A stretch of DNA of 44,413 nucleotides from the IMG/VR virus record IMGVR_UViG_2657245588_000005. One strand, given 5' to 3'. Position 1 is the stretch's first letter, and every line of letters starts with the position of its first letter. Positions 1,419 to 44,413 of the stretch are shown here, in pieces. A program made the position numbers and the translations under genes. The notes below the pieces were generated by a model. That model was not told the origin of the DNA, did no database searches, and saw only the letters and a list, made by a program, of their open reading frames with translations. Source of the DNA: a virus (Duplodnaviria > Heunggongvirae > Uroviricota > Caudoviricetes).

Positions 1419-3860
1419 TTAAAAATCAGCCTGACTCGGGATCAGTTTTTGCCAGATAACTGAAACGTATTTTGCCTGGTAACGGGCGTCATCAAGTGCA
1501 TTATGGCGCTCACCTTCGAATGGAATAGCCGTTCTGGCATCGAAGTCTATGGCTTTCCCCAGCTCAACGATTGTGCGTACATCGCGATCGTTGTAGTAAC
1601 GCCACGGGCAGGGGATCCCCTGCCGTTCGTATGAACGGCGCAAAATCGTGTTGTCGAAGTTGGCTCCATTTCCCCAGACCTGAACAAAAAATTCACCGGA
1701 GTTTTCGTCGATAAATTCCCGCAATTGTAACAGTGCATCATCTAACGGGATTTCATCGGTCATAATGGCAGATTGCGCTTCGCGTGATTGCTTAAGCCAC
1801 CATTTAATGGTGTCCCGATCAATGACTCCGCCAGCAGTTTCCAGATCGATAGTCTTACTAAATTCCGGTCCCATATCTCCGGTTTGCGGATCGAAAAATA
1901 TTGCACCTATTGAGATGATCGGGGCATCAGGATTTTTTCCCATGGTTTCAAGGTCGATCATTAGATGGTCACACGTCCTGCTGGTGGATGTGATTTCTTG
2001 ATGACCGTTCACCTTAATTGAGTGATCTGCCGTCTCGCCAGTTTCATTATCGCTATCGTGATGCTGATTGCCGCCAGTGTTCTCCTTGTGTGGATGTTCA
2101 GCGCCTTCCATTTCCTCCGGATCATCTTCCTGAACTTCAACCTGATACTCTTCATCGAATGTTTCCTGGTATGTTGCGTCGCCCATCACCGCGCCACAAT
2201 CAGGGCAGTTGCCGCCGCCGGTCTGACCGCAGGCGGTGCAGACTTTTTCCACTTCCTGTTGCGCCACTGGTTCGGATTGTTTCGTTTCTGGCTCGTTTTG
2301 TAACGCATTTGGGCTGTTTTGTTCCGCTTTTTGGTCGTTCCGTTCCGATTCATGCTGGTTCTGGTTCACAGAATCGCGAGTCTGGATCCCTTTGACCCAT
2401 TTCGGATCATTAGGGTCGCTAATCCCCTCAACAAATTCACCACGCGATACAGCAAGTAACTTATCGGCGTCAGGCTGGCTGATATTGGCTGCCTGCATAA
2501 TTTTGTTTACTTCGTCAGCGGTGACTTTTACTTGGTTAGCGGAACTCACCTGCGACTGAGCATCCAGCGACTGCGCGTTCTGGCCATGTTCAGTTGTATC
2601 CGGTTCCATTGTTTCAGTTGTTGCCTGTTCACCTGCCATTGCGTCAGATGGTTGTGGTTTTTCTTCTTCTGTTTCACGCTCAGTAACCACCTCGCGGTTA
2701 ATTTCTTCCAGGATATCTTTTTCCGGCGTATGCCGGGCAGCTGTGAGAGTTTCCTTGCTGGGGTTCTCGTGATCAGTTTCCGTCAAATAGGCGTTGATAT
2801 ACCCCTGAAGGCGTCCCGGGTAGTGATAAAATTCAGGGTGTGCGCTTCGGATAAGTGCAAAAATAGCGGCGCGGGAATAGTCCAGAATACCCGGGGTTGC
2901 ACGAAGTGCTGCGGACCATTCTTTGAACGGACTTTCTTTGTTCAGGACTACTTCTTTTGCGCGACGATAAACGCTGCCCGGAATTTCATAAATATTAAAA
3001 TCCATCGGAAGTGTGGCTGCTGCAATCTCCACATCCAGTGTGTCGAGGGTGTGTACTAAATTCGGATTGCGATCGGTTTTGTTCCCACCGCCAGCATTAG
3101 CACCGGAAGCCGTGCGGGTGATGCGTGAAACACGATTTCCTTTCATCCACTCTTTTGTCAGCAGACCCCGATCAGTGTAGTCAGCGTCTAGGTATGCTTC
3201 GAAAAAAGCAGTTATTAGTCCCAGGTCTGAATTACCAGGATTAGGGAAAACTTTGTCAGTGTCACGAACCAGTTTGTGGAGGTCGCGAATCTCCAGCGAG
3301 TCGAGCAGACTGGTTTTATGCGAAATAGCCAGGGCAGTAACAGCCGGTAGTTCTTCAGCCCGTGCAATGTGTAATGCCTGGAGTTCGTCGCGTGAAACGT
3401 GCGTTACTGGTTTTTCGCTGCCGTGTTGAGCAAGCCAACGAATGGGCAGTTCCTGACCGGAGACAGGCAGAAGCATGCTCTCCTCAATCTCAGTCATGGC
3501 TTCGCCGTTGATGTTGGTATTGTCAGTGCTGGCTGGTTTGTCCTGAACAGAGGGGGAAGGGCCGATAAATGTCATTGTGATGCCATCTTTCCCGCCTTTT
3601 TCATAGCGGTTGCAGAATTCAGTATCAAACACGCCTTCTGGCGGAAGGTCGTCAACAACGGGCAAATTGACGCGGACGGGTTTTTTAAAGTCGTCTTCAT
3701 CATAATCGTTGTCATCCATTGCGGTAATGCAGCGGGAGATTGCAACAGATAATTTTTTTGCTGTAGTCCAGTAAAAACCACCTTTAATTCCTAGGCGTTT
3801 TCTTACTTTGTCATTTTTTGCTTCGCAATATAGTGCAAATTCTTCTTTATCAGTGCTCAT
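1419..3860 (-). CDS. Large phage exonuclease with C-terminal DnaQ/DEDDh-like 3'-5' exonuclease domain (often annotated exodeoxyribonuclease VIII-like)
   Basis: 813 aa; C-terminal motifs 'MIDLETMG' (Exo I D-x-E), '[12 protein letters not shown]' (Exo II) and '[10 protein letters not shown]' (Exo III H-x4-D); acidic low-complexity middle and a CxxC-x-CPDCG zinc-ribbon-like motif; sits in the early-left operon where exo/recE normally lies. Confidence 0.7.
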
Positions 3861-3953
3861 TATTGGTAAACCTCATCACAGATTTAAGGGTGAACAAATC
3901 TCTGCCATTGCTGACATATAAGAATGAAACTGGATATTTATTACGGTGCTGTT

Positions 3954-4145
3954 TTAAAATCCTGCCGGGATTTCGTTATTATCCTGGTGAATAACTTTAT
4001 CGACCGGATAACAGTTGCCTGGAATTTTCTGTTCGGTTGCTGCTGCCATACATTCCTGCATTGTTCTGTGAACACTGACTGCAATATCAACTGGCTCTCC
4101 GGAAACAAGAAAAACCGTCAGAATAAGTGCAAATACTGGATTCAT
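3954..4145 (-). CDS. ydfD: YdfD-like small lysis protein (63 aa, N-terminal hydrophobic segment)
   Basis: Internal ATG at 4143-4145 gives 'MNPVFALILTVFLVSGEPVDIAV...'; start overlaps the dicB stop (ATGA); recalled similarity to Qin YdfD and conserved position downstream of dicB. Confidence 0.6.
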   Translation of the reverse strand: MNPVFALILTVFLVSGEPVDIAVSVHRTMQECMAAATEQKIPGNCYPVDKVIHQDNNEIPAGF

Positions 4146-4330
4146 TGTGCACATCCTTTTGGCATCAGACGTAAACGGGCCAGCATTGAAACAATGCATA
4201 CTTTATTTAATAACTCCCGTTCGTGTTTTCTTTTGTTAATGGCATCTTCAGTAAATACAGGATTACTGATAGTGACACCAATTTCAAAACAACCTTCAGA
4301 CGTATTAACGTTTGGTAATAACGTTTTCAT
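4142..4330 (-). CDS. dicB: Cell division inhibitor DicB
   Basis: 62-aa product 'MKTLLPNVNTSEGCFEIGVTISNPVFTEDAINKRK...LARLRLMPKGCAQ' matches the recalled Qin DicB sequence; GAGGG RBS upstream; dicF-like sequence immediately upstream on the same strand. Confidence 0.75.
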   Translation of the reverse strand: MKTLLPNVNTSEGCFEIGVTISNPVFTEDAINKRKHERELLNKVCIVSMLARLRLMPKGCAQ

Positions 4331-4499
4331 TATCGCGCCCTCAACAATGAGTTTTGTGATGCGGTGCCTGGTGCCTCCAGGTGACGTTAACCAGTTAACA
4401 ATTAACGCCGGATACAGAGAATCCACCCATAACACTGTTTTTGGTTTTAACTGTTCCGCGTGCGCTTAGCCGCATTCACCGCATCACAAAATTCACTTT

Positions 4500-4557
4500 A
4501 AAAAGGGCGGCAGAGCAGTCACGGAGTAAAACTGATACCGCCAAACGTCACCAGAAA
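4500..4557 (-). ncRNA. dicF: DicF small RNA (about 53 nt plus U-tail; ftsZ-targeting sRNA of the dicB operon)
   Basis: Minus-strand sequence UUUCUGGUGACGUUUGGCGGUAUCAGUUUUACUCCGUGACUGCUCUGCCGCCC followed by UUUUU (GC stem plus U-run terminator); matches recalled DicF and lies where dicF sits in Qin, between ydfC and dicB. Confidence 0.65.
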
Positions 4558-4898
4558 ATTGATAACAGAGGGCGTTGCAGTGGGGTTGTCACTTAAGCGT
4601 ATGGTCAACCTGACAACCCGGTGTCCTCAACGGGGGAAGGAATAACCCCGCCATACTTACCGCCGCGCCATTTCGCGGATTGCCACAACCGGAAGCGCAC
4701 GGTCGACGAAAATTTAACGACAGGCTATCTATGAACCAGCTACCTCGCCGTGCGCTTTCGCGTTATGGTCTGACTTTTCAGGGAAATATCCTTTCAGTAA
4801 ACTGTCAGTGCCGGATGCTCACCCGTGTCCGGCGCACGCACTCCACCTCACCCGTGGAGAACTCCTTAATTACCAACCTTAGCTTCGTTGGTTATCTA

Positions 4899-5117
4899 TT
4901 AACGCGGGTATGTAATCATTCTGGCAATGCTTAATGCCGCTGCTTTTTCCAGCCTGGTGATATCCTGCTCCAGAGCGGACAGATTTTCAGCCTGCTTAGC
5001 CCTGGCTTCATTGGCCCATTTCAAATCCTGCGCTGCATTAATTTTCTGGCGCATCCACTCATAAAGTTCATCATCGGTATAGTCTGGCGCGATGATGACG
5101 GGTTCTCGTTTCTGCAT
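4899..5117 (-). CDS. ydfC: YdfC-like small protein of the dicB operon
   Basis: 72-aa ORF with AAGGAG RBS; assigned by position upstream of dicF-dicB as in Qin; function unknown. Confidence 0.5.
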   Translation of the reverse strand: MQKREPVIIAPDYTDDELYEWMRQKINAAQDLKWANEARAKQAENLSALEQDITRLEKAAALSIARMITYPR

Positions 5118-5188
5118 GTCGGCTCCTTGTGGTTAGCGTTGCCTGCTTTTAACCACGTCAGGCGAGGTGGTATCCTCTGAGGGGTCTG

Positions 5189-5545
5189 TTACTCGAGAGG
5201 AAATTGGTTATGAATACAATCAAGTTTTCTTGCCCAGAATGTGGTGGCGAAGTCTTTGACACATCCTTTAAACCGCAGGGCTCTGACAGTTTCGCGGGAG
5301 CCATCTGCAAAAATTGTGGTCACCTTGTAACTGAAGATGAGTCCTCGCAGTTTGATGACGAAATCGTTGACAATATCTTCGGTGCACTCACCAGAGACTT
5401 TCTGAAGTAAAGGCGCATACCGCTTAGTTACCGCTCTGATAATTCTTACCTGTCCGGCAATGGCGCTGATATCAATATAAAGCGCCATCGCTGTTTCTTT
5501 GCTGATCCCTGGACGCCTTCCATTCTGATGTTTGACTTCGCCCAC
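5189..5545 (-). CDS. Alternative hypothetical protein (118 aa) downstream of cI on the same strand (rex/sieB-equivalent position)
   Basis: GTG start at 5543-5545 with AGAGGA 7 nt upstream; same orientation as the repressor. Mutually exclusive with the plus-strand zinc-ribbon ORF; codon-position composition does not separate them. Confidence 0.3.
   Translation of the reverse strand: MGEVKHQNGRRPGISKETAMALYIDISAIAGQVRIIRAVTKRYAPLLQKVSGECTEDIVNDFVIKLRGLIFSYKVTTIFADGSRETVRALRFKGCVKDFATTFWARKLDCIHNQFPLE
5210..5410 (+). CDS. Small zinc-ribbon protein (CPECGG...CKNCGH) with acidic tail; hypothetical
   Basis: 66 aa from ATG 5210 with GAGAGG RBS at 5195-5200; two CxxC pairs about 20 residues apart; possible hairpin plus T-run downstream (5460-5500). 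Overlaps the alternative minus-strand ORF 5189..5545; only one is likely real. Confidence 0.35.
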   Translation: MNTIKFSCPECGGEVFDTSFKPQGSDSFAGAICKNCGHLVTEDESSQFDDEIVDNIFGALTRDFLK

Positions 5546-5841
5546 TGAGAAATCCTCTGTTTCCCCTTAACGCCGGGGTAGCGGAACAAAAACCTGCTGC
5601 ATAGTTATTAAAGTTGAACCCTGCCGTCATGTTCTTACGCCTCGGGCTGGCTACTTAACCCCTGACCACTGCCTGGTAACTCGAAGTATTGCCCTGCATT
5701 CTGTAGGATGGGGTGAGGGAATGAATGAAGTTTAGAAAAACGAACTTTTCAGGTCAATGTTTTTTTATCAAAACATTTTAAGCAGGCAGCTGTTAAGCCA
5801 TCACCACGATGGCATACAGTTAATCAAATAGATGAGGTTGG

Positions 5842-6480
5842 TTAAATATCTTGTTGAATTTTAAAGCATACGCCCAATATGCAAGATAGATCATCCAGCA
5901 TAATTGAAGGGTAGCGAGGATTCGTGGGGACTAAAAGAATATCCGGCCCTTCTATCTCCAGTTTACGAATGACAGGTGTTGTGGTCCCTTTGGGTAAGGC
6001 AAGGACAATATTTCCTGGTTGTACGGTTCGATCGGGATCAACAAAAACTGTTGAACCATTTGGGATGGAAACTCCCCCACCAGATGTTGACATACTGTCA
6101 CTCTCTAGAACAACTGCAAAGGTATTGACCGGGATTTCTCCGACAAGCTGCACACAAGAGGTTATTGAGGAATTTTTCATATAATCACTCCAGCTTGCTG
6201 CCTGCTGAAGTGATAGTAGCGGAACCGTTTTTATCGGCGGTAAAGATAGATCAAGCGAATCACCTGTATTTAACTCTCCTCCATTAAGAAGCCAATTTTC
6301 GTTTACTTTCAATATTTTTGCCAGTGAACTTATGTAACGCGAGGACGGCGCTCCTCCACCGTTCATCCATTGACTTACGGAGCCTTTTGATGCGCCAGTG
6401 CCATTGACAAGGTCTTTGCCTTTCAGGTTTAGCGCATGCATACGTTGGGTTATGCGTTCAGATATAGTTTGCTTGCTCAT
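5842..6480 (-). CDS. CI-like repressor (N-terminal HTH, C-terminal S24 LexA-type autopeptidase domain)
   Basis: 212 aa; C-terminal 'LESDSMS...' Ser motif and 'PVIRKLE' Lys consistent with a Ser-Lys dyad; divergent from the cro-like gene across a promoter/operator-like intergenic region. Confidence 0.85.
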   Translation of the reverse strand: MSKQTISERITQRMHALNLKGKDLVNGTGASKGSVSQWMNGGGAPSSRYISSLAKILKVNENWLLNGGELNTGDSLDLSLPPIKTVPLLSLQQAASWSDYMKNSSITSCVQLVGEIPVNTFAVVLESDSMSTSGGGVSIPNGSTVFVDPDRTVQPGNIVLALPKGTTTPVIRKLEIEGPDILLVPTNPRYPSIMLDDLSCILGVCFKIQQDI

Positions 6481-10170: not shown

Positions 10171-10350
10171 ATGAAAAACGCATTGCAGTTTTTGTTTGTT
10201 GCGTTCTGGTTGTTCGTATCATGTATGCCCATCATCTTCACAGCAAGGTATATGGAAAAAGTTGATGTTTTGATATTAATATTTGGATATATAAATGCCC
10301 TTTTTTTAGGGGTGTTCATGGCGGTCATGTGCATTGAATACTGGCGGTAA
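10171..10350 (+). CDS. Small hydrophobic membrane protein (59 aa, two predicted TM segments)
   Basis: ATG 10171 with perfect AGGAGG RBS; AT-rich promoter-like region upstream; sequence 'MKNALQFLFVAFWLFVSCMPIIFTARYMEKVDVLILIFGYINALFLGVFMAVMCIEYWR'. Confidence 0.5.
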   Translation: MKNALQFLFVAFWLFVSCMPIIFTARYMEKVDVLILIFGYINALFLGVFMAVMCIEYWR

Positions 10351-12017: not shown

Positions 12018-13553
12018 ATGAGCAGCTCACTTCCTGACGATATCAATGCACTGAAACGTCTCCTTGCCGAACAGGAGGCGCTGAACCGTGCCCTGCAGGA
12101 AAAGCTGAACGAGCGTGAACGCGAAATAGACCATCTGCAGGCACAGCTGGATAAGCTGCGCCGGATGAACTTCGGCAGCCGCTCGGAAAAAGTCTCCCGT
12201 CGTATCGCACAGATGGAAGCTGACCTGAAGGCACTTCAGAAAGAAAGTGATACCCTTACCGGTCGGGTTGACGACCCGGCCGTGCAGCGCCCGCTGCGTC
12301 AAACCCGCACCCGCAAACCGTTCCCCGAATCACTCCCCCGCGATGAAAAACGGCTGCTGCCGGCAGCGTCATGCTGCCCGGAATGTGGAGGCTCGCTGAG
12401 CTATCTGGGTGAGGATGCCGCTGAACAGCTGGAGCTGATGCGCAGCGCCTTCCGGGTTATCCGGACTGTACGTGAAAAGCATGCCTGTACTCAGTGCGAT
12501 GCCATCGTGCAGGCCCCCGCGCCTTCACGGCCCATCGAGCGGGGTATCGCAGGACCGGGGCTGCTGGCCCGCGTGCTGATCTCAAAGTATGCAGAGCACA
12601 CCCCGCTGTACCGCCAGTCTGAAATGTACGGCCGCCAGGGCGTGGAGCTGAGTCGTTCACTGCTGTCGGGCTGGGTGGATGCATGCTGCCGGCTACTGTC
12701 ACCGCTGGAAGAAGCGCTTCAGGACTATGTGCTGACTGACGGTAAGCTCCATGCTGATGACACGCCTGTCCCGGTGCTGTTGCCAGGCAATAAGAAAACG
12801 AAGACCGGGCGGTTATGGACCTACGTTCGTGACGACCGTAACGCCGGGTCAACGCTGGCGCCGGCGGTGTGGTTCGCTTACAGCCCGGACAGAAAAGGCA
12901 TCCATCCGCAGACCCATCTTGCGGGGTTCAGTGGTGTACTGCAGGCGGATGCATACGCCGGGTTCAACGAGCTGTACCGGGATGGCCGGATAACGGAAGC
13001 CGCCTGTTGGGCTCACGCCCGCCGTAAAATCCACGATGTGCACGTTCGCACCCCGTCAGCCCTGACGGAGGAAGCGCTGAAACGGATCGGCGAACTGTAC
13101 GCCATCGAGGCAGAGATAAGGGGAATGACGGCGGAGCAGCGCCTTGCCGAACGTCAGTTGAAAACGAAACCGCTGCTGAAATCCCTGGAAAGCTGGCTGC
13201 GTGAAAAGATGAAAACCCTGTCGCGACACTCAGAACTGGCGAAAGCGTTCGCATACGCCCTGAACCAGTGGCCGGCGCTGACGTACTATGCAGATGATGG
13301 CTGGGCTGAGGCGGACAATAACATCGCTGAAAATGCGTTGCGGATGGTCAGTCTGGGCCGCAAAAACTACCTGTTCTTCGGTTCGGATCATGGAGGAGAG
13401 CGGGGAGCGCTGCTGTACAGCCTGATCGGGACGTGCAAACTGAACGGAGTGGAGCCAGAAAGCTACCTCCGCTATGTCCTTGACGTCATAGCCGACTGGC
13501 CGATAAACCGGGTCGGCGAACTGCTCCCCCTGGCGCGTAGCACTGCCGACTGA
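12018..13553 (+). CDS. IS66-family transposase (TnpC, DDE)
   Basis: 511 aa with N-terminal coiled coil, CxxC zinc-finger region and DDE core, typical of IS66 TnpC. Confidence 0.88.
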
Positions 13554-19445: not shown

Positions 19446-19903
19446 GCAGAGTCGCCGCGATTATTTATGCTTTGGTTATCTGCATCATCGTCTGCCTGTC
19501 GTGGGCGGTCAATCATTACCGTGATAACGCCATCGCCTACAAAGAACAGCGTGATAAAAAAGTCAGTGAGCTGAAGCAGGCGATCGCCACTATCGCTGAC
19601 ATGCAGCAGCGTCAGCGTGATGTTGCTGCACTCGATGCAAAGTACTCGAGAGAATTAGCCAATGCGAAAGCTGAAAATGAAACTCTGCGCGCTGATGTTG
19701 CCGCTGGTCGTCGTCGGTTGCACATCAAAGCAGTCTGTCAGTCAGTGCGTGAAGCCACCACCGCCTCCGGCGTGGATAATGCAACCAGCCCCCGACTGGC
19801 AGACACCGCTGAACGGGATTATTTCACCCTCAGAGAGAGGCTGATCACAATGCAAAAACAACTGGAAGGAACCCAGAAGTATATTAATGAGCAGTGCAGA
19901 TAG
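19442..19903 (+). CDS. Spanin inner-membrane subunit Rz (i-spanin)
   Basis: GTG start overlapping the endolysin stop (GTGA); N-terminal TM segment and coiled-coil periplasmic domain; embedded Rz1 ORF in the +1 frame. Confidence 0.75.
19662..19844 (+). CDS. Spanin outer-membrane lipoprotein subunit Rz1 (o-spanin), embedded in Rz
   Basis: 60 aa with lipobox 'LVVVGC' and proline-rich mature region ([16 protein letters not shown]), entirely inside Rz in another frame. Confidence 0.7.
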
Positions 19904-19934
19904 AGCTGCCCATATCGATGGGCAACTCATGCAA

Positions 19935-20228
19935 TTATTGTGAGCAATACACACGCGCTTCCAGTGGAGTATAAATGCCTAAAGTAATAAAACCGAGAAA
20001 TCCATTTACGAATGTTTGCTGGGTTTCTGTTTTAACAACATTTTCTGCGCCGCCACAAATTTTGGCTGCATCAACAGTTTTCTCCTGTCCAATTCCCGAA
20101 ACGAAGAAATGATGGGTGATGGTTTCCTTTGGTGTTACTGCTGTCGGTTTGTTTCCAACAGTAAACGTCTGTTGAGCACATCCTGTAATAAGCATTGCCA
20201 GAGCGGCAGAAAACAACATTTTTTTCAT
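19935..20228 (-). CDS. bor: Bor lipoprotein (serum-resistance lysogenic-conversion protein)
   Basis: 97 aa 'MKKMLFSAALAMLITGCAQQTFTV...LEARVYCSQ' with lipobox ITGC; matches recalled lambda Bor; antisense to the late genes. Confidence 0.85.
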   Translation of the reverse strand: MKKMLFSAALAMLITGCAQQTFTVGNKPTAVTPKETITHHFFVSGIGQEKTVDAAKICGGAENVVKTETQQTFVNGFLGFITLGIYTPLEARVYCSQ

Positions 20229-20753
20229 CTTATTATCCTGCATTGTTAAAAACGGCAGAATCCTATGTGACAACAATTAAACGATAGTTAAATGGATTGA
20301 TGAAAATTAAAACTATATAGGTGGATGCTCAGCCTATTGGAGGTAGTCAGGATTTGAATGTCAGTCTGTTGTCGGCATTCTGGCAATGCAATTTGGATAA
20401 AGCGGGGATTAAAAAGATAGAGGCGAGCCGGTCAGGTAGAAATGAATCAGGCTCAAAGTGAAGCGGAAAAGGTCTGTGGCACAAGCTGATGCAGCCATAA
20501 TTACAGCCTGATGATTTGTGGAATGAAACATGTTGAACCTCCTTAATTGATGTTATTCGAGTGATGAAGGCATTCTGTCCTTCTATAGTGTCCAGTAAAT
20601 CAAACAGGAAACTTGTCCAACGTGTTGGACAAGCCTCTCCATTAGTGAGTTGTATTGATCACAACTCTACAAAGAATTCATTACTGGGTAGATGAAAATA
20701 GTTTCACTATGAATGGAGGAGGCTATGTCGGTGGCTTCTTCATTGGAGTACAT

Positions 20754-21734: not shown

Positions 21735-23491
21735 TGGCAAAAGTGGCTGACGGGATCCGCTACGCCGAACGTGTTGTTGCAGGAGAAATTGTTGCTGGCG
21801 AATTTGTCCGTCTGGCCTGCCAGCGTTTTCTTGATGATCTGAAGTACGGCGAAGAGCGGGGGATTTATTTCAGTGAACCCCGTGCACAGCACATCCTTAA
21901 TTTCTACAAATTTGTACCCCATGTGAAAGGGGCGCTGGCAGGTCAGCCCATTGAGTTGATGGACTGGCATGTGTTTATCCTCATTAATATTTTTGGTTTT
22001 GTCATTCCGCTGGTGAATGAAGAAACCGGGGAAGTTGTCATGCGCAGCGATGGCAGTGGACGCCCGGTGATGGTGCGCCGGTTCCGGACAGCATACAACG
22101 AAGTTGCCCGTAAAAACGCAAAATCAACCCTGTCATCGGGTATCGGTCTGTATATGACGGGGGCAGATGGTGAAGGCGGGGCTGAGGTGTATTCAGCCGC
22201 AACCACGCGTGACCAGGCCAGAATTGTGTTTGAAGACGCCAAAAATATGGTCAGAAAAGCCCGGTCGACACTCGGGCGGTTGTTTGATTTCAACAAGCTG
22301 GCGATTTACCAGGAGCAGAGCGCATCAAAATTTGAACCGCTTTCCTCGGATGCAAACAACCTGGACGGTCTGAACATCCACTGCGCCATTATTGATGAGC
22401 TGCATGCTCATAAAACCCGTGACGTGTGGGACGTTCTGGAAACGGCAACCGGTGCCCGTCTGCAGTCTCTGTTATTTGGCATCACCACGGCTGGCTTTAA
22501 CAAGGAAGGGATTTGCTACGAGCAGCGCGATTACGCCATTAAGGTATTGCGAGGCTATAACAGCGACGTGGAGGGCGCGGTAAAAGACGACTCCTACTTT
22601 GCGATCATTTACACGCTCGATGAGGGAGATGATCCGTTTGATGAAACGGTCTGGCAGAAAGCGAATCCTGGCCTGGGCATCTGTAAACGCTGGGATGATC
22701 TGCGTCGTCTGGCGAAAAAAGCGAAGGAGCAGGTCTCTGCGCGGGTGAATTTTTTTACCAAACACATGAATGTGTGGGTCACTGCCGAATCTGCCTGGAT
22801 GGATATGATTAAGTGGGAGAAGTGCGAATACATTGCTCCACAACATGAGCTGAAAACATATCCCATGTGGGTCGGCGTCGACCTTGCTCATAAGATTGAT
22901 ATCTGTGCGGCGGCAAAACTCTGGCGAACCGATAACGGACATGTTCATGCTGATTTTAAATTCTGGCTTCCGGAAGGACGGCTGGAGCGATGCTCGCGGC
23001 AGCAGGCAGAACTTTACCGGAAGTGGGCGGAGATGGATAAGCTCATCCTGACGGATGGTGATGTTATCGATCATGCTCAGATAAAAAGTGACTTACTGGA
23101 ATGGATTGGCGGTGAAAACCTCAGGGAACTGGGATTTGACCCGTGGAGCGCAATGCAGTTCAGCCTGGCACTGGCTGAAGAAGGGATACCGCTGGTGGAG
23201 GTTCCGCAGACGGTCCGCAATCTGTCAGAGGCCATGAAGGAAACGGAATCACTGGTTTATGCCGGGCGTTTCCATCACAGCAATCATCCGGTCATGAACT
23301 GGATGATGTCTAACGTTACGGTAAAACCGGACAAAAACGACAACATCTTCCCGAATAAATCCACGCCTGAAGCCAAAATCGACGGCCCTGTTGCGCTTTT
23401 TACGGCCATGAGCCGCTTTCTGGTAAATGGCGGGGGCGTGAATGACTTTCTGTCCACGCTTGATCCTGATGAGGACCTGTTAATTCTGTGA
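21734..23491 (+). CDS. Terminase large subunit (HK97-type)
   Basis: 585 aa with Walker A-like 'RKNAKSTLSSGIGLY' and C-terminal nuclease region; canonical position. Confidence 0.9.
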   Translation: MAKVADGIRYAERVVAGEIVAGEFVRLACQRFLDDLKYGEERGIYFSEPRAQHILNFYKFVPHVKGALAGQPIELMDWHVFILINIFGFVIPLVNEETGEVVMRSDGSGRPVMVRRFRTAYNEVARKNAKSTLSSGIGLYMTGADGEGGAEVYSAATTRDQARIVFEDAKNMVRKARSTLGRLFDFNKLAIYQEQSASKFEPLSSDANNLDGLNIHCAIIDELHAHKTRDVWDVLETATGARLQSLLFGITTAGFNKEGICYEQRDYAIKVLRGYNSDVEGAVKDDSYFAIIYTLDEGDDPFDETVWQKANPGLGICKRWDDLRRLAKKAKEQVSARVNFFTKHMNVWVTAESAWMDMIKWEKCEYIAPQHELKTYPMWVGVDLAHKIDICAAAKLWRTDNGHVHADFKFWLPEGRLERCSRQQAELYRKWAEMDKLILTDGDVIDHAQIKSDLLEWIGGENLRELGFDPWSAMQFSLALAEEGIPLVEVPQTVRNLSEAMKETESLVYAGRFHHSNHPVMNWMMSNVTVKPDKNDNIFPNKSTPEAKIDGPVALFTAMSRFLVNGGGVNDFLSTLDPDEDLLIL

Positions 23492-38898: not shown

Positions 38899-39498
38899 AT
38901 GCGTAAAGTTTGTGCAGCCATTTTGTCCGCAGCCATCTGTCTGGTCGTATCCGGTGCGCCTTCATGGGCGTCTGAACATCAGTCCACGCTGAGCGCGGGG
39001 TATCTTCATGCCTCGACGAACGTTCCCGGCAGCGATGATCTTAACGGGATTAACGTGAAATACCGCTATGAGTTTACGGACACGCTGGGGATGGTGACGT
39101 CATTCAGCTATGCAGAAGACAAGAATCGCCAGCTGACTCATTACAGCGATACCCGCTGGCATGAAGATTCCGTGCGTAATCGCTGGTTCAGCGTGATGGC
39201 GGGGCCGTCTGTGCGCGTGAATGAATGGTTCAGCGCGTATGCGATGGCGGGTGTGGCTTACAGCCGTGTTTCGACTTTCTCCGGGGATTATCTCCGCGTA
39301 ACTGACAACAAGGGGAAAACGCACGAAGTGCTGACCGGAAGTGATGACGGTCGCCGCAGCAACACGTCTCTGGCGTGGGGGGCTGGCGTGCAGTTTAACC
39401 CGACCGAATCCGTGGCCATTGATATTGCTTATGAAGGCTCCGGCAGTGGTGACTGGCGCACTGACGGTTTCATCATGGGTGTCGGTTATAAGTTCTGA
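38899..39498 (+). CDS. lom: Outer membrane protein Lom (Ail/Lom family; lysogenic-conversion gene)
   Basis: 199 aa with signal peptide and beta-barrel-like alternating pattern, C-terminal 'GVGYKF'; flanked by terminators like lambda lom. Confidence 0.85.
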   Translation: MRKVCAAILSAAICLVVSGAPSWASEHQSTLSAGYLHASTNVPGSDDLNGINVKYRYEFTDTLGMVTSFSYAEDKNRQLTHYSDTRWHEDSVRNRWFSVMAGPSVRVNEWFSAYAMAGVAYSRVSTFSGDYLRVTDNKGKTHEVLTGSDDGRRSNTSLAWGAGVQFNPTESVAIDIAYEGSGSGDWRTDGFIMGVGYKF

Positions 39499-39524
39499 TT
39501 AGCCAGGTAACACAGTGTTATGAC

Positions 39525-39552
39525 AGCCCGCCGGTTCAGGCGGGCTTTTTTG
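39525..39552 (+). terminator. Rho-independent terminator after lom
   Basis: GCCCGCC-GGTTCA-GGCGGGC hairpin followed by TTTTTT. Confidence 0.75.
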
Positions 39553-39556
39553 TGGG

Positions 39557-42500
39557 GTGAATATGGCAGTAAAGATTTCAGGTGTACTGAAAGACGGTGC
39601 AGGTAAACCGGTACAGAACTGCACAATCCAGCTGAAAGCAAAACGTAACAGCACCACGGTGGTGGTGAACACGGTGGCCTCAGAAAATCCGGATGAAGCC
39701 GGGCGTTACAGCATGGACGTTGAGTACGGTCAGTACAGCGTTATTCTGTTGGTGGAAGGATTCCCGCCGTCACATGCCGGGACCATCACCGTGTATGAAG
39801 ATTCCCGACCCGGTACGCTGAATGATTTTCTCGGTGCCATGACGGAGGATGATGCCCGTCCTGAGGCACTGCGCCGTTTTGAACTGATGGTGGAAGAGGT
39901 GGCGCGTAACGCGTCCGCGGTGGCGCAGAACACGGCAGCCGCGAAGAAGTCAGCCAGCGATGCCGGCACATCAGCCCGTGAGGCGGCAACCCGTGCGACT
40001 GATGCTGCAGGCTCAGCACGTGCAGCCAGCACGTCAGCCGGACAGGCCGCGTCGTCGGCTCAGTCAGCGTCTTCCAGCGCAGGAACGGCATCAACAAAGG
40101 CCACTGAAGCATCAAAAAGTGCTGCCGCCGCAGAGTCTTCAAAAAGCGCGGCAGCCACCAGTGCCGGTGCAGCGAAAACGTCGGAAATGAATGCCGCAGC
40201 ATCACAAAAATCTGCGGCCACTTCTGCATCCACCGCGACCACGAAAGCGTCAGAAGCTGCCACCTCAGCCCGGGATGCGTCGGCTTCAAAAGTGGCGGCA
40301 AAATCATCAGAAACGAGCGCTGCCTCGAGCGCCGGCAGTGCAGCTTCCTCGGCAACGGCAGCAGGAAATTCCGCGAAGGCCGCAAAAACGTCTGAGACGA
40401 ATGCGGATAACAGCGCACAGGCGGCAGCAGACTCACAAACTGCATCGGCAAACTCCGCGACAGCAGCCAAAAAATCAGAAACCAACGCGAAAAATAGTGA
40501 GGCAGCAGCAAAGGTCAGCGAAACCAACGCTAAAGCGTCAGAGAACAAGGCGAAAGAATATCTCGACAAGGTCGGGGGACTCGTCAGCCCGATGACGCAA
40601 TACGATTGGCCCGTTGTTACTGGTAATGAGTCTTTTTACATAAAGATCGCGAAACTTTCCGATCCCGGAAGCGGCAATTGCCATGTAACGCTAATGGTTA
40701 CTAATGCTGGTAACTACGGCTCCCCTTACGGAAACATTGACTTTATCGAGATCTCGGCGCGCGGTCTGCCTTCTTTGCTTAGTGCGGATAATGTTTCTCG
40801 TCATCTGAGTATACGCCGCTTAGGGTCAACCGGGCTGACCGATAACAACCAGATGCGTTACGGCCTGGTTAAAGGTGATGGCTTTATTGAGGTTTGGGCC
40901 TTCCAGCGCGCATTTATCAACGGCGCAAAGGTTGCGGTGCTGGCGCAGACGGCACGCCCGGAATTATACATTCCAGACGGATTTGTTAAGCAAACCGCCG
41001 CGCCTTCTGGATATGTTGAAGGCCCCGTTGTAAGGATTTACGACCAGGTAAACAAGCCGACTAAAGCAGATTTGGGTCTTTCTAATGCTATGCTTACAGG
41101 CGCTTTCGGTCTTGGCGGTAGCGGGATATCAACAAACGGCAAGATGAGCGATGTAGAGATCTTAAAAGCTCTGCGTGACAAAGGTGGTCATTTCTGGCGC
41201 GGTGATAAGCCGACCGGAAGCACGGCGACCATTTATAGCCACGGTTCTGGTATATTCTCGCGGTGCGGCGATACGTGGTCAGCGATCAATATCGACTACT
41301 CAACCGCGAAGATTAAGATCTATGCCGGCAACGATGCCCGGCTTAACAACGGGACTTTTAGCGTCAATGAGCTATACGGCTCGGCAAACAAGCCGTCGAA
41401 ATCGGATGTTGGACTTGGCAACGTAACGAACGATGCGCAGGTAAAAAAAACCGGCGATACAATGACCGGTGACTTGACAATCAAAAAAGGTACACCGTCA
41501 GTCTTCCTGCGGGCAGACAGTGGAGTCACCGCTTTGCGGTTTTATACTGGCGATAACACAGAGCGCGGCATAATCTATGCTGGTCCTAACACTGATTCGC
41601 TTGGCGAAGTTCGCATCAGGGCAAAGACAGCAGGGGGGACATCAGGAGGGGATCTTGTTGTTCGTCACGACGGGAGGGTTGAAGTCCGTGATCTCACAGT
41701 AGCGTATAAAATTAAAAGCAGAACGATTGAGATTGCAAATACCGACACTGACTCATCGGCAACTACGCTCAGCATCTATGGAGTACAGCACACGCCGTTG
41801 GTTTTAACGCGTTCTGGTTCTTCTGAAAATGTGTCCATTGGGTTTAAGTTAGACAACATGAACCCAAAGTATCTTGGAATTGATACTAATGGGGATCTGG
41901 CTTTTGGTGAGAGTCCTGATCAGAAACAAAACAGCAAATTGATCACGCAAGCGAAACTCGACAAGGGATTAACGATTGGTGGTCAACTGGCTTTCAAAGG
42001 TACGACAGCGTTTTCAGCCGTTGCTACGTTCAGTGCCGGGATAGCAGGAGCCATCGAGCCGGAAAACATTGACGGCCAGACGGTTAATCTTAACAACCTG
42101 ACCATCATCAAGTCAGATGCCGGGGCAGTTAAATACTATATTTGTCCATCCTCTGCAGGTGGTGCAAATATCACCAACAAGCCTGACGGCGTAACAGGTA
42201 ACTTTTTGCTCCGTGTTGAATCGACTCGTAAGGTTAGGGATTCAGATTATGCGAACATGCAAACGCTGATTAACAGCGACACAAAACGTATATACGTTCG
42301 CTTTGTTGTTAATGGAAACTGGACAGCGTGGAGTCAGGTTGTTGTTTCCGGATGGAATCAGGATGTAACCGTCAGGTCGTTAACCTCGACGACTCCATCA
42401 AAATTAGGTGGCGGGCGGATTGATGTGCTTGGAAGTACGTCAGATTATGGCAGCATGAATTGTACCGTTCGTGGTGTTGATAGCACTGGAACCAATTCGG

Positions 42501-43339
42501 CGTGGTCGGTAGGCACATCAGAAAGCACAGGCAAAAAGTTGTTCCTGAAAAACCACAGAAGCAGCGCTCAAGTGCTGTTAAATGGCGATGATGGAGCGGT
42601 TCAACTACTAAGTGGCACTGTTAACGGTGCTACAGCGCAGGCGCTAACCATCAACAAAGATGAGGTTAACTCAACTGCCGATTTAGTAATTAGAAAACAA
42701 ACAGGGACTGGCAATCGTTTTGCTTTACTTAATTCAGGTAATTCAGAACTGCCAGTTAGCATCGCGGTCTGGGGGTCAAGTGATCGACAAAACGTTTTTG
42801 AGGTTGCAACGTCTGCTGCGTATCTGTTTTATGCGCAAAGAACACCAGCAGGCCAGTTGTTTGATGTAAATGGCGCTATTAATTGCACAACGCTGAATCA
42901 GTCATCAGACCGCGACCTTAAAGACGATATTCGCGTTATCAGCGACGCGACGAAAGCAATCCGCAAAATGAACGGTTACACCTACACGCTCAAGGAAAAC
43001 GGCCTGCCTTATGCTGGCGTTATTGCACAGGAAGTAATGGAGGCGATACCAGAAGCTGTGGGATCGTTTACTCATTATGGTGAAGAGTTGCAAGGTCCGA
43101 CCGTTGACGGCAACAAGCTACGCGAAGAAACGCGCTATCTTAATGTTGACTACGCCGCCGTGACGGGTTTACTTGTTCAGGTCGCCCGTGAAACAGATGA
43201 TCGCGTTACCGCGCTGGAAGAGGAAAACACAACGCTACGTCAAAATCTGGCAACAGCAGGCACCCGGATCAGCACTCTGGAAAATCAGGTAAGCGAACTG
43301 GTTGCACTTGTCCGGCAGTTAACAGGAAGCGAACATTGA
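39557..43339 (+). CDS. Side tail fibre protein (lambda Stf-like N-terminus and Ala/Ser-rich repeats; C-terminal self-cleaving intramolecular chaperone domain, S74-like)
   Basis: 1260 aa; long Ala/Ser/Thr-rich repeat tract (protein about 110-340, DNA about 39900-40570); C-terminal 'SSDRDLKDDIRVISDATKAIRKMNGYTY...' resembles the endosialidase-type chaperone domain. Confidence 0.85.
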   Translation: MNMAVKISGVLKDGAGKPVQNCTIQLKAKRNSTTVVVNTVASENPDEAGRYSMDVEYGQYSVILLVEGFPPSHAGTITVYEDSRPGTLNDFLGAMTEDDARPEALRRFELMVEEVARNASAVAQNTAAAKKSASDAGTSAREAATRATDAAGSARAASTSAGQAASSAQSASSSAGTASTKATEASKSAAAAESSKSAAATSAGAAKTSEMNAAASQKSAATSASTATTKASEAATSARDASASKVAAKSSETSAASSAGSAASSATAAGNSAKAAKTSETNADNSAQAAADSQTASANSATAAKKSETNAKNSEAAAKVSETNAKASENKAKEYLDKVGGLVSPMTQYDWPVVTGNESFYIKIAKLSDPGSGNCHVTLMVTNAGNYGSPYGNIDFIEISARGLPSLLSADNVSRHLSIRRLGSTGLTDNNQMRYGLVKGDGFIEVWAFQRAFINGAKVAVLAQTARPELYIPDGFVKQTAAPSGYVEGPVVRIYDQVNKPTKADLGLSNAMLTGAFGLGGSGISTNGKMSDVEILKALRDKGGHFWRGDKPTGSTATIYSHGSGIFSRCGDTWSAINIDYSTAKIKIYAGNDARLNNGTFSVNELYGSANKPSKSDVGLGNVTNDAQVKKTGDTMTGDLTIKKGTPSVFLRADSGVTALRFYTGDNTERGIIYAGPNTDSLGEVRIRAKTAGGTSGGDLVVRHDGRVEVRDLTVAYKIKSRTIEIANTDTDSSATTLSIYGVQHTPLVLTRSGSSENVSIGFKLDNMNPKYLGIDTNGDLAFGESPDQKQNSKLITQAKLDKGLTIGGQLAFKGTTAFSAVATFSAGIAGAIEPENIDGQTVNLNNLTIIKSDAGAVKYYICPSSAGGANITNKPDGVTGNFLLRVESTRKVRDSDYANMQTLINSDTKRIYVRFVVNGNWTAWSQVVVSGWNQDVTVRSLTSTTPSKLGGGRIDVLGSTSDYGSMNCTVRGVDSTGTNSAWSVGTSESTGKKLFLKNHRSSAQVLLNGDDGAVQLLSGTVNGATAQALTINKDEVNSTADLVIRKQTGTGNRFALLNSGNSELPVSIAVWGSSDRQNVFEVATSAAYLFYAQRTPAGQLFDVNGAINCTTLNQSSDRDLKDDIRVISDATKAIRKMNGYTYTLKENGLPYAGVIAQEVMEAIPEAVGSFTHYGEELQGPTVDGNKLREETRYLNVDYAAVTGLLVQVARETDDRVTALEEENTTLRQNLATAGTRISTLENQVSELVALVRQLTGSEH

Positions 43340-43522
43340 TATCCTTCAAGCTCTGAAGGAGGCTGTTCCCGGTACGTTCAGACTGTTGTTGAGCTGGAAA
43401 TCGCAACGGAGGAAGAAACCTTGTTGCTGGAAGCCTGGAAGAAGTATCGGGTGTTGCTGAACCGTGTTGATACATCAGTAGCACCGGATATTGAGTGGCC
43501 TGCTGTCCCTGTTATGGAGTAA
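43340..43522 (+). pseudogene. Remnant of tail fibre assembly gene (tfa) 3' end
   Basis: In frame directly after the tail fibre stop; ends '...[31 protein letters not shown]', the conserved Tfa C-terminus; no credible start or RBS. Confidence 0.5.
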
Positions 43523-43625
43523 TCGTTTTGAGATACGCCGCATACACGTTGTATGCAATAACGTGCTGCGGCTTGGTAAATTTTAGCTAGTTTCAGCAGG
43601 AGACATAAAAAACTTCAATATAAGA

Positions 43626-44413
43626 TTAAGCATCACGTATTGCCAACCTGATTTTTGACTGATACCAATTGGGGCCTTCTGCAATTATTTCTTCCTCAAC
43701 ATGCATGATGGGATGCATTTCAATTTCAGAGTTTTTGACTTTTAGATCTAGTCCATATTTTTTTGAAATTTGTAAAACTTCATTTTTGAAATCCTTATCT
43801 GCGAAAGGTGAAATCCTTATTTCTTCCAACAGATTATTAAGAGATACAGGGACTAGTTTTCCCTTTACAGGTGGAGTGTTAAAGGTATTCTCTTGAAAAA
43901 TAGCTCTAAACTCTTTTTCGTGTTCGAAAGATGGTCTCTTGTTAAAGAATACATCTGATTCTGGATTGTATTGTTTTATCCAGAAATTTTTGACGTATTT
44001 TACGTGTTTTAATTGTAGTTTGTTTAGATTATTATTTTCAAGTTGGCTTTGGAGGTTTTTTTCTTTGATTTTATGACAACGCCTTTAGCGGGGTTTTTAC
44101 AATACAGCTTCCACATAGCTTCAGATTCATGTTCGTTACAATGCCAGCAACTTATATATGTCCTCTCGCTTATTTCCTTAGGTGTCTTTAAATTGAATGC
44201 CATGAAAGGCTCTAAGTCCATGCCGGCACCATGAGTAGCGCATAGTTTTTCCTGTGTCTCAATGAATTTTTTATAGCCAGTATGTCCCCAAGCAAATTCA
44301 CCTTCGAACGGATCTTCAAAATTTTTTGCTGAGCAAAAAAATAAAGCATTTTGTTCGAGTAACATAGAGAATTTCTCTATGTCAAGATATCGCCATATAT
44401 ACTCAGTGTGCAT
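43626..44413 (-). pseudogene. DUF2971-like protein gene split by a frameshift at a homopolymer (129-aa N-terminal ORF plus downstream open frame), in AT-rich cargo DNA
   Basis: ATG at 44411-44413; N-terminal 'YLDIEKFSMLLEQNALFFCSAKNFEDPFEGEF' and 'YISCWHCNEHESEAMWKLYC' resemble recalled DUF2971 motifs; the frame stops at 44024-44026, but a second frame is open from 44023 down to 43626; the T7 run at 44056-44062 is the likely shift point. Confidence 0.45.

Follow-up and report, generated by a model that had tools for sequence, protein, structure and literature searches.

A truncated tfa 3' end behind an S74-type side tail fibre gene: a probable recombination relic that acts as a crossover site

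The window analysed here is a stretch of 44,413 nucleotides from a virus of the Caudoviricetes (IMG/VR record IMGVR_UViG_2657245588_000005). Near its right-hand end lies a side tail fibre gene, stf, with an anchor like that of lambda, and directly behind the fibre stop codon lies what appears to be the 3' end of a tfa gene. A preliminary description, made from the letters alone, had taken this arrangement for a recombination scar. The features needed to follow the argument are these:

39371..40404, plus strand: left block common to lambda (end of lom and stf codons 1 to ~286) and left edge of the replaced cassette, from blastn
39557..43339, plus strand: side tail fibre gene stf, 1260 aa, with a GTG start and a TGA stop, from the ORF list and Pfam
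42905..43336, plus strand: S74 chaperone domain and coiled-coil tail, from PF13884, the S16 alignment and tblastn to coliphage fibres
43337..43339, plus strand: stf stop codon TGA, with T as the next base, read from the sequence
43340..43375, plus strand: 36-nt spacer inside the junction interval, with no DNA match to any tfa
43376..43522, plus strand: tfa 3' stub, read as a pseudogene fragment; 48 codons equivalent to lambda Tfa 147-194 (the conserved helical C-terminal domain), plus TAA
43523..43572, plus strand: lambda-homologous sequence 3' of tfa, kept with the stub, with blastn homology to 43571

The fibre gene combines a lambda-like N-terminal anchor, a foreign shaft and tip, and a C-terminal intramolecular chaperone. 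In the anchor, the Pfam domain phage_tail_N matches residues 3-136 (E=5e-72); at the other end, Peptidase_S74 (PF13884) matches residues 1117-1168 (E=3.4e-13, with 50.1 bits against a gathering cut-off of 22), which bears out the chaperone-type ending proposed in the preliminary description. The S-D-x-x-x-K motif is present as S1117-D-R-D-L-K1122, and SSDRDLKDDI of the fibre aligns with SSDRRIKKDI of the phage S16 fibre chain 6F45_A; we take Ser1117 and Lys1122 to be the putative autocleavage pair, on the catalytic roles published for the S74 family. The chaperone has its closest relatives in fibres of virulent coliphages of large and medium size: tblastn gives 60-75% identity over ~130 residues with those of slur09, WildeMaa, slur16 and naam. 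In weaker homologues the alignment runs on until at most five residues remain before the stf stop, up to 43321. S74 intramolecular chaperones do the equivalent of Tfa's job in cis and are then cleaved off. Since the motif is present here, the fibre is predicted to fold and trim itself, and Tfa would be dispensable for it.

At least 39 of 55 related loci have an unbroken fibre ORF, which argues for maintenance of the fibre. The gene is itself a mosaic—the N-terminal ~330 and the last ~310 codons are common to the loci, and the middle (~40536..42400, plus strand) has been replaced in several classes, with loci L003, L005 and L008 among those that differ from the window; hence the range of fibre lengths, from 830 to 1262 aa. 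Annotation of the fibre is inconsistent. In L001 (NZ_CP043942.1) PGAP has two features over 2482..6240, a pseudogene for the N-terminal part and a 'tail fiber domain-containing protein' for the C-terminal part; other genomes have a single 'pyocin knob domain-containing S74 family peptidase', and some of the genomes with split annotation are otherwise identical across the junction.

Behind the fibre TGA, 60 sense codons are open in the stf frame (43340..43519, plus strand) and are closed by a TAA at 43520-43522, just as first described. The accompanying claim that this stretch ends in the conserved C-terminus of Tfa stands for the greater part of it, but not for all—the demonstrable Tfa portion is 48 of the 60 codons, from 43376 on, and codons 1-12 after the fibre stop (43340-43375) have no match in the stf frame. 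Residues 13-57 of the stretch match profile positions 86-130, out of 131, of the Pfam family Caudo_TAP (E=8.1e-20), and 43376..43519 matches residues 147-194 of lambda Tfa, also named orf-194, with 83% amino acid identity (tblastn, E=1e-21). At the DNA level, 43377..43571 is 90% identical to lambda 22412..22606 (blastn, E=1e-73), a match that continues through the tfa stop and for 49 nt further. The sole solved relative, chain 5YVQ_B of Mu TfaU, matches the stub with residues 133-174 of its 175, and the conserved C-terminal helical domain of Tfa, of the WKxYRVLLxRVD...WP type, is present. Given the matches from Pfam, tblastn, blastn and 5YVQ_B, the Tfa similarity of the stub is not a matter of chance.

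Tfa proteins are modular: a variable N-terminal domain binds the fibre tip, and a conserved helical C-terminal domain trimerises (PMC9608196). Coding sequence for the N-terminal part was sought by tblastn with lambda, ESSI2 and APSE Tfa, and nothing N-terminal of residue 147 was found in any frame anywhere in the window, so a hidden intact tfa is ruled out. The stub thus falls short of the whole Caudo_TAP family (PF02413), which includes the N-terminal fibre-binding domain, and neither a start codon nor a ribosome-binding site of its own lies at or overlaps the fibre stop. Neither the stub nor the fibre matches NCBIfam. On this evidence, 43376..43522 is very probably a non-functional 3' stub of a lambda-type tfa gene—a fragment of Caudo_TAP by sequence, and no functional member of it.

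Homology to lambda in this region is confined to two blocks, 39371..40404 and 43377..43571. The left block is 86% identical to lambda 19458..20491 (blastn), and at the protein level the match to lambda Stf is limited to fibre residues 1-286, at 85%; in related loci conservation of the 5' block reaches as far as ~40536. Between the two blocks, 2972 nt stand in for 1920 nt of lambda, which there encode Stf from residue ~287 and Tfa residues 1-146. The alignment with lambda, the S74 tip and a pseudogene call by PGAP together support what the preliminary description had proposed, namely that a distal Stf-Tfa module was replaced by a chaperone-containing tip. Because the chaperone homologues reach 43321 and Tfa homology begins at 43376, the alignments place the presumed illegitimate join within 43322..43375, with the stop codon inside that interval.

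The 36-nt spacer lies there too. A word-11 blastn search of the phage collection returned tfa homology only from 43377 on, and an exact-pattern scan of IMG/VR found the spacer elsewhere only at the same junction, in one lom-stub deletion derivative, and in two unrelated chance matches. In the +1 frame the spacer is loosely alignable to the Tfa segment 'SLMQVASEHIAP', which precedes 'LQDA' (tblastn with ESSI2 and APSE Tfa); its addition in that frame gains no more than 0.7-2 bits against the Pfam and PHROG profiles, and its three polymorphisms all leave the +1 translation unchanged, while each alters an amino acid in the stf frame. These observations are suggestive of a spacer that may itself be derived from tfa, in the +1 frame and then frameshifted, in which case the relic would extend to the stop codon. 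In the deletion derivative (L072, IMGVR_UViG_2908572912_000001, match at 10275-10294 on the minus strand), lom now continues in frame into the stub (…GINVKY followed by PSSPEGGCSWYVQTV…), and the whole fibre gene is gone, apparently by deletion through the short repeat ATATCC.

The arrangement is widespread. Stop codon, spacer and proximal stub are identical in the cultured phages Ayreon, mEp460 and PhiR70_1; the viability of these phages is no proof of Tfa-free fibre assembly, because the side fibres of lambda are dispensable for plaque formation in the laboratory, as in lambda PaPa. The junction is found in all 53 IMG/VR and reference loci that have the same fibre end and enough downstream sequence, in a sample retrieved by an exact 24-nt pattern at the stf end and hence made up of loci whose stf termini have not diverged there. 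Among complete E. coli genomes it is present in 804 of 5426 (~15%), at 1376 places, all with at least 95% identity. Coding sequence for the Tfa N-terminus lies next to the fibre in none of the 54 related loci, where every tblastn match starts at residue 147; the window, too, has no intact tfa, in keeping with what was first reported. The replacement event is old, single and widely inherited, and is not private to this prophage.

Annotation pipelines have already met the stub. In RefSeq the equivalent of 43388..43522 is carried as a pseudogene, labelled by PGAP 'tail fiber assembly protein; incomplete; missing N-terminus'. In the literature we found no description of this junction, or of the stf of mEp460, Ayreon or the PhiR phages, and a preprint on in-situ mutagenesis has nothing on chaperones. 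As a feature, the stub is known in kind, through truncated tfa genes and tfa-mediated exchange, and is an ordinary, common recombination scar.

Variation within the stub is unevenly distributed. Its proximal part (43340-~43405) is nearly invariant; further along it is pieced together from many Tfa C-terminal alleles, among them …PAVPVME, …PALP, …LEEPNTM, …PTNPVRE, …PVAPIG, …PEEPDTV and …VNPVWPPPSKR. The 47 loci compared reduce to 35 distinct sequences, in which five consecutive segments fall into 9, 14, 9, 20 and 24 classes, and 24 different flanks follow the stub downstream. Over the first 130 nt of the stub the four-gamete test fails for 41 of 91 informative site pairs, with an Rm of at least 5 recombination events. 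Nucleotide diversity is low (0-0.05) over 43166-43405, a stretch partly fixed by the retrieval pattern; it is 0.07-0.17 in the chaperone domain to the left and 0.15 in 43406-43435 to the right.

Partners for such exchange are plentiful, with a tfa 3' end in 4247 of 5426 complete E. coli genomes and a median of two places per genome. Lambda is known to recombine with the Rac and Qin prophages via tfa homology, and in lambda x Rac recombinants the right junction lay in the 95%-identical tfa region in one third of cases (PMC3945230, De Paepe et al. 2014). The stub also has the form expected of the boundary, or 'linker', of a mosaic module—a conserved stretch to which different flanks have been joined in different lineages. 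From the near-invariant proximal part, the mosaic distal part and the recombination events just counted, our best reading is that the stub is in practice a crossover site, a passive right-hand homology arm by which the fibre cassette moves between backbones.

Downstream of the stub stop, homology to lambda continues into a GC-rich hairpin of 36 nt (43537..43572, plus strand; GCCGCATACACGTTGTATGCAATAACGTGCTGCGGC), which begins 15 nt past the stop and is common to lambda just 3' of tfa. The 106-nt region around it folds with -30.3 kcal/mol (z=-2.9). About half of the related loci have the hairpin, and the differences among them preserve the stem; lambda, for example, has AAACGTT/AACGTTC where the window has ACACGTT/AACGTGC. 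The hairpin has no clear T-run and drew no call in the terminator scan; the tail-fibre transcript may end there or be stabilised by it.

Beyond the hairpin, on the minus strand, lies an AT-rich (34% GC) cargo gene of the DUF2971 family (43626..44413). In the window a frameshift in a homopolymer run near 44060 breaks this gene into ORFs 44024..44413 and 43626..43829; strain WL164 has an intact 246-aa copy at the same position. In several related loci the first tfa 3' stub is followed, ~1 kb further downstream, by a second (L024 at 6208..6477, L009 at 13112..13285, and L025, L041, L043, L035, L055 and L065), and L065 has a third as well. A minus-strand ORF of 222 aa, by its look a putative methyltransferase, lies between the two stubs of L024 and of L009, and the second stub of L024 is an ATG-started ORF of 89 aa. 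The repeated stubs look like layered scars of successive exchanges.

These observations can be drawn together in one history. The lambda-like phages of this group would share an ancestor in which a single illegitimate join within 43322..43375 put a foreign shaft and a tip with an S74 chaperone beside the interior of tfa, at about codon 147, and in which the left end of the cassette was joined inside stf after about 286 codons. The variable N-terminal fibre-binding domain of Tfa would have been lost together with the old tip, leaving a remnant that lacks its own promoter-proximal start, has coding sequence for nothing but the conserved helical C-terminal domain, and is presumably untranslated. 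Thereafter, repeated homologous crossovers in the stub would have spread the fibre cassette onto many downstream backbones; the stub can keep working as a right-hand homology arm because it is ~90% identical to the 3' ends of intact tfa genes in most E. coli genomes. We hold this account as a whole—a dead tfa relic from a single join, later used as a crossover arm—with high confidence.

Other explanations would give the remnant a function of its own. In one of them selection keeps the stub and hairpin in place, the use being either transfer of the S74 fibre cassette between lambdoid genomes, with the stub as a portable homology arm, or an untranslated 3' end for the tail operon transcript, which it would terminate or stabilise; a stub stands behind every sampled copy of the fibre end, recombination inside it is heavy, the lambda-like hairpin varies so as to preserve its stem, and extra stubs bracket cargo genes in related loci. 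Universal presence, however, is already expected from a single origin and a junction core that has diverged little (pi at most 0.035), the hairpin is missing from about half of the loci and, as noted, has no clear T-run and no terminator call, and selection for evolvability is hard to demonstrate; we regard retention by selection as quite unlikely. The more general proposal that tfa stubs, whether behind self-chaperoning fibres or bracketing cargo, are selected portable homology arms for swapping cassettes and cargo with E. coli tfa genes is in our view unlikely. Were the stub instead the source of a small protein of 32-33 aa that supplied the C-terminal helices of Tfa, it might start, for example, at TTG 43421 or TTG 43424; the ORF list and translation show no ATG, GTG or TTG upstream of 43421 in the stub frame. 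TTG 43421 opens a 33-aa ORF (43421..43522) with an SD-like GGAGGA (43408-43413) 8 nt upstream, so that the earlier statement that there was no plausible start or ribosome-binding site went slightly too far; it remains apt in that this TTG is poorly conserved: of 38 distinct related sequences, 30 have TCG instead, and 10 are without the second TTG. GGAGGA merely spells Thr-Glu-Glu codons and occurs in intact tfa genes too. PHROGs does contain families of short (78-88 aa) Tfa-C-like proteins, and the 89-aa ORF mentioned above is a Tfa-C ORF too; a product from the first stub, however, would be missing the fibre-binding domain, it would serve an S74 fibre that has its own trimerising chaperone, and PGAP calls no gene there. 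A scan for promoters and terminators on the plus strand near the stub returned nothing. We consider such a protein very unlikely.

Translation could also reach the stub from the fibre gene, if programmed readthrough of the TGA placed 60 residues, with a helical domain of Tfa type, on a fraction of the fibre subunits before the chaperone is cleaved. In its favour, all 60 codons can be read in the stf frame without a stop, the related loci that were recovered by a search not requiring TGA all have TGA there, and a published structural comparison finds similar helical-bundle architectures in Tfa-type and intramolecular chaperones (PMC9608196). The chance of such an opening is not small: the stf frame comes up one time in three and a run of 12 random codons has a ~0.56 probability of containing no stop, which gives ~0.2 for both, so that the in-frame relation to stf is statistically unremarkable and an accident of the join. 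The preliminary description had found nothing to suggest readthrough, and stop context, RNA fold and substitutions all agree with it. In E. coli, termination at TGA is efficient when T follows. The fold of the 101 nt spanning and following the stf stop is no more stable than that of shuffled sequence (z=-0.10), and the changes counted in the stf frame are 0 synonymous against 3 non-synonymous in the spacer, where every polymorphism in the first 12 codons thus alters an amino acid, and 1 against 4 in 43376-43414; they point to the absence of coding constraint in that frame wherever the sequence is unique to the junction. One copy of the stub, L017, is frameshifted, and in L072 the deletion has taken the whole fibre gene, both of which speak against such constraint as well. 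The extension would, moreover, sit on a domain that is predicted to be removed by autoproteolysis. Neither a leaky context, nor a stimulatory structure, nor constraint on the extension is found, and readthrough strikes us as extremely improbable. That 52 of 53 stubs are open to the native tfa stop could be taken for constraint, but it does not demonstrate any, as the same is expected where distal parts are imported repeatedly from functional tfa alleles. That the stub is an error of sequencing or assembly, or that a recent mutation private to this prophage masks an intact tfa, has a negligible probability and is ruled out by the same arrangement, base for base, in independently sequenced phages and hundreds of complete genomes.

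Set against known systems, the stub is closest to the stf-tfa region of lambda, with which it shares its position after J-lom-stf, 83% identity in protein and 90% in DNA, and the 49 nt of 3' sequence that were kept. Unlike lambda tfa, it lacks residues 1-146 and the ATGA start that overlaps the stf stop, and unlike in lambda the distal ~970 residues of the preceding fibre are unrelated to lambda Stf. The stub corresponds to the conserved C-terminal region of Mu TfaU (PDB 5YVQ), which is proposed to trimerise and drive assembly (PMC9608196); it has no N-terminal beta-sandwich, in contrast to TfaU, and is known here as sequence only. The fibre itself shares Peptidase_S74 and the SSDRxxK motif with S74 fibres and tailspikes such as the K1F endosialidase, the L-shaped fibre pb1 of T5 and gp37 of S16; what sets it apart from them is that the unit is grafted on a lambda Stf anchor in a temperate siphovirus, with a relic of the replaced chaperone system behind it. 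Among tfa fragments in the cryptic prophages of E. coli, truncation by exchange of tail-fibre modules and the same PGAP label are familiar; this one differs in being one specific and very widespread allele, made up of the S74 fibre stop, the 36-nt spacer and tfa from codon 147.

A change of receptor specificity relative to lambda Stf is likely, and may reasonably be expected from two things: the nearest relatives of the chaperone are in fibres of virulent coliphages, and the BASEL study reported frequent transfer of a 'T5-like RBD + IMC' unit between phages of Tequintavirus, Gordonclarkvirinae and Wifcevirus (PMC11990801). The preliminary description had pointed the same way.

The junction leaves general understanding unchanged and raises no new question; its value is practical. 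For annotation, the 60 in-frame codons should neither be merged into the fibre gene nor be called as a gene. The mosaic of the stub offers a clean natural example of exchange via the conserved 3' end of tfa, a route already demonstrated in experiments with lambda and cryptic prophages. As the marker of the right-hand edge of a fibre cassette that has reached ~15% of complete E. coli genomes, the stub is useful in the engineering of lambda-type fibres and in tracing host-range modules.
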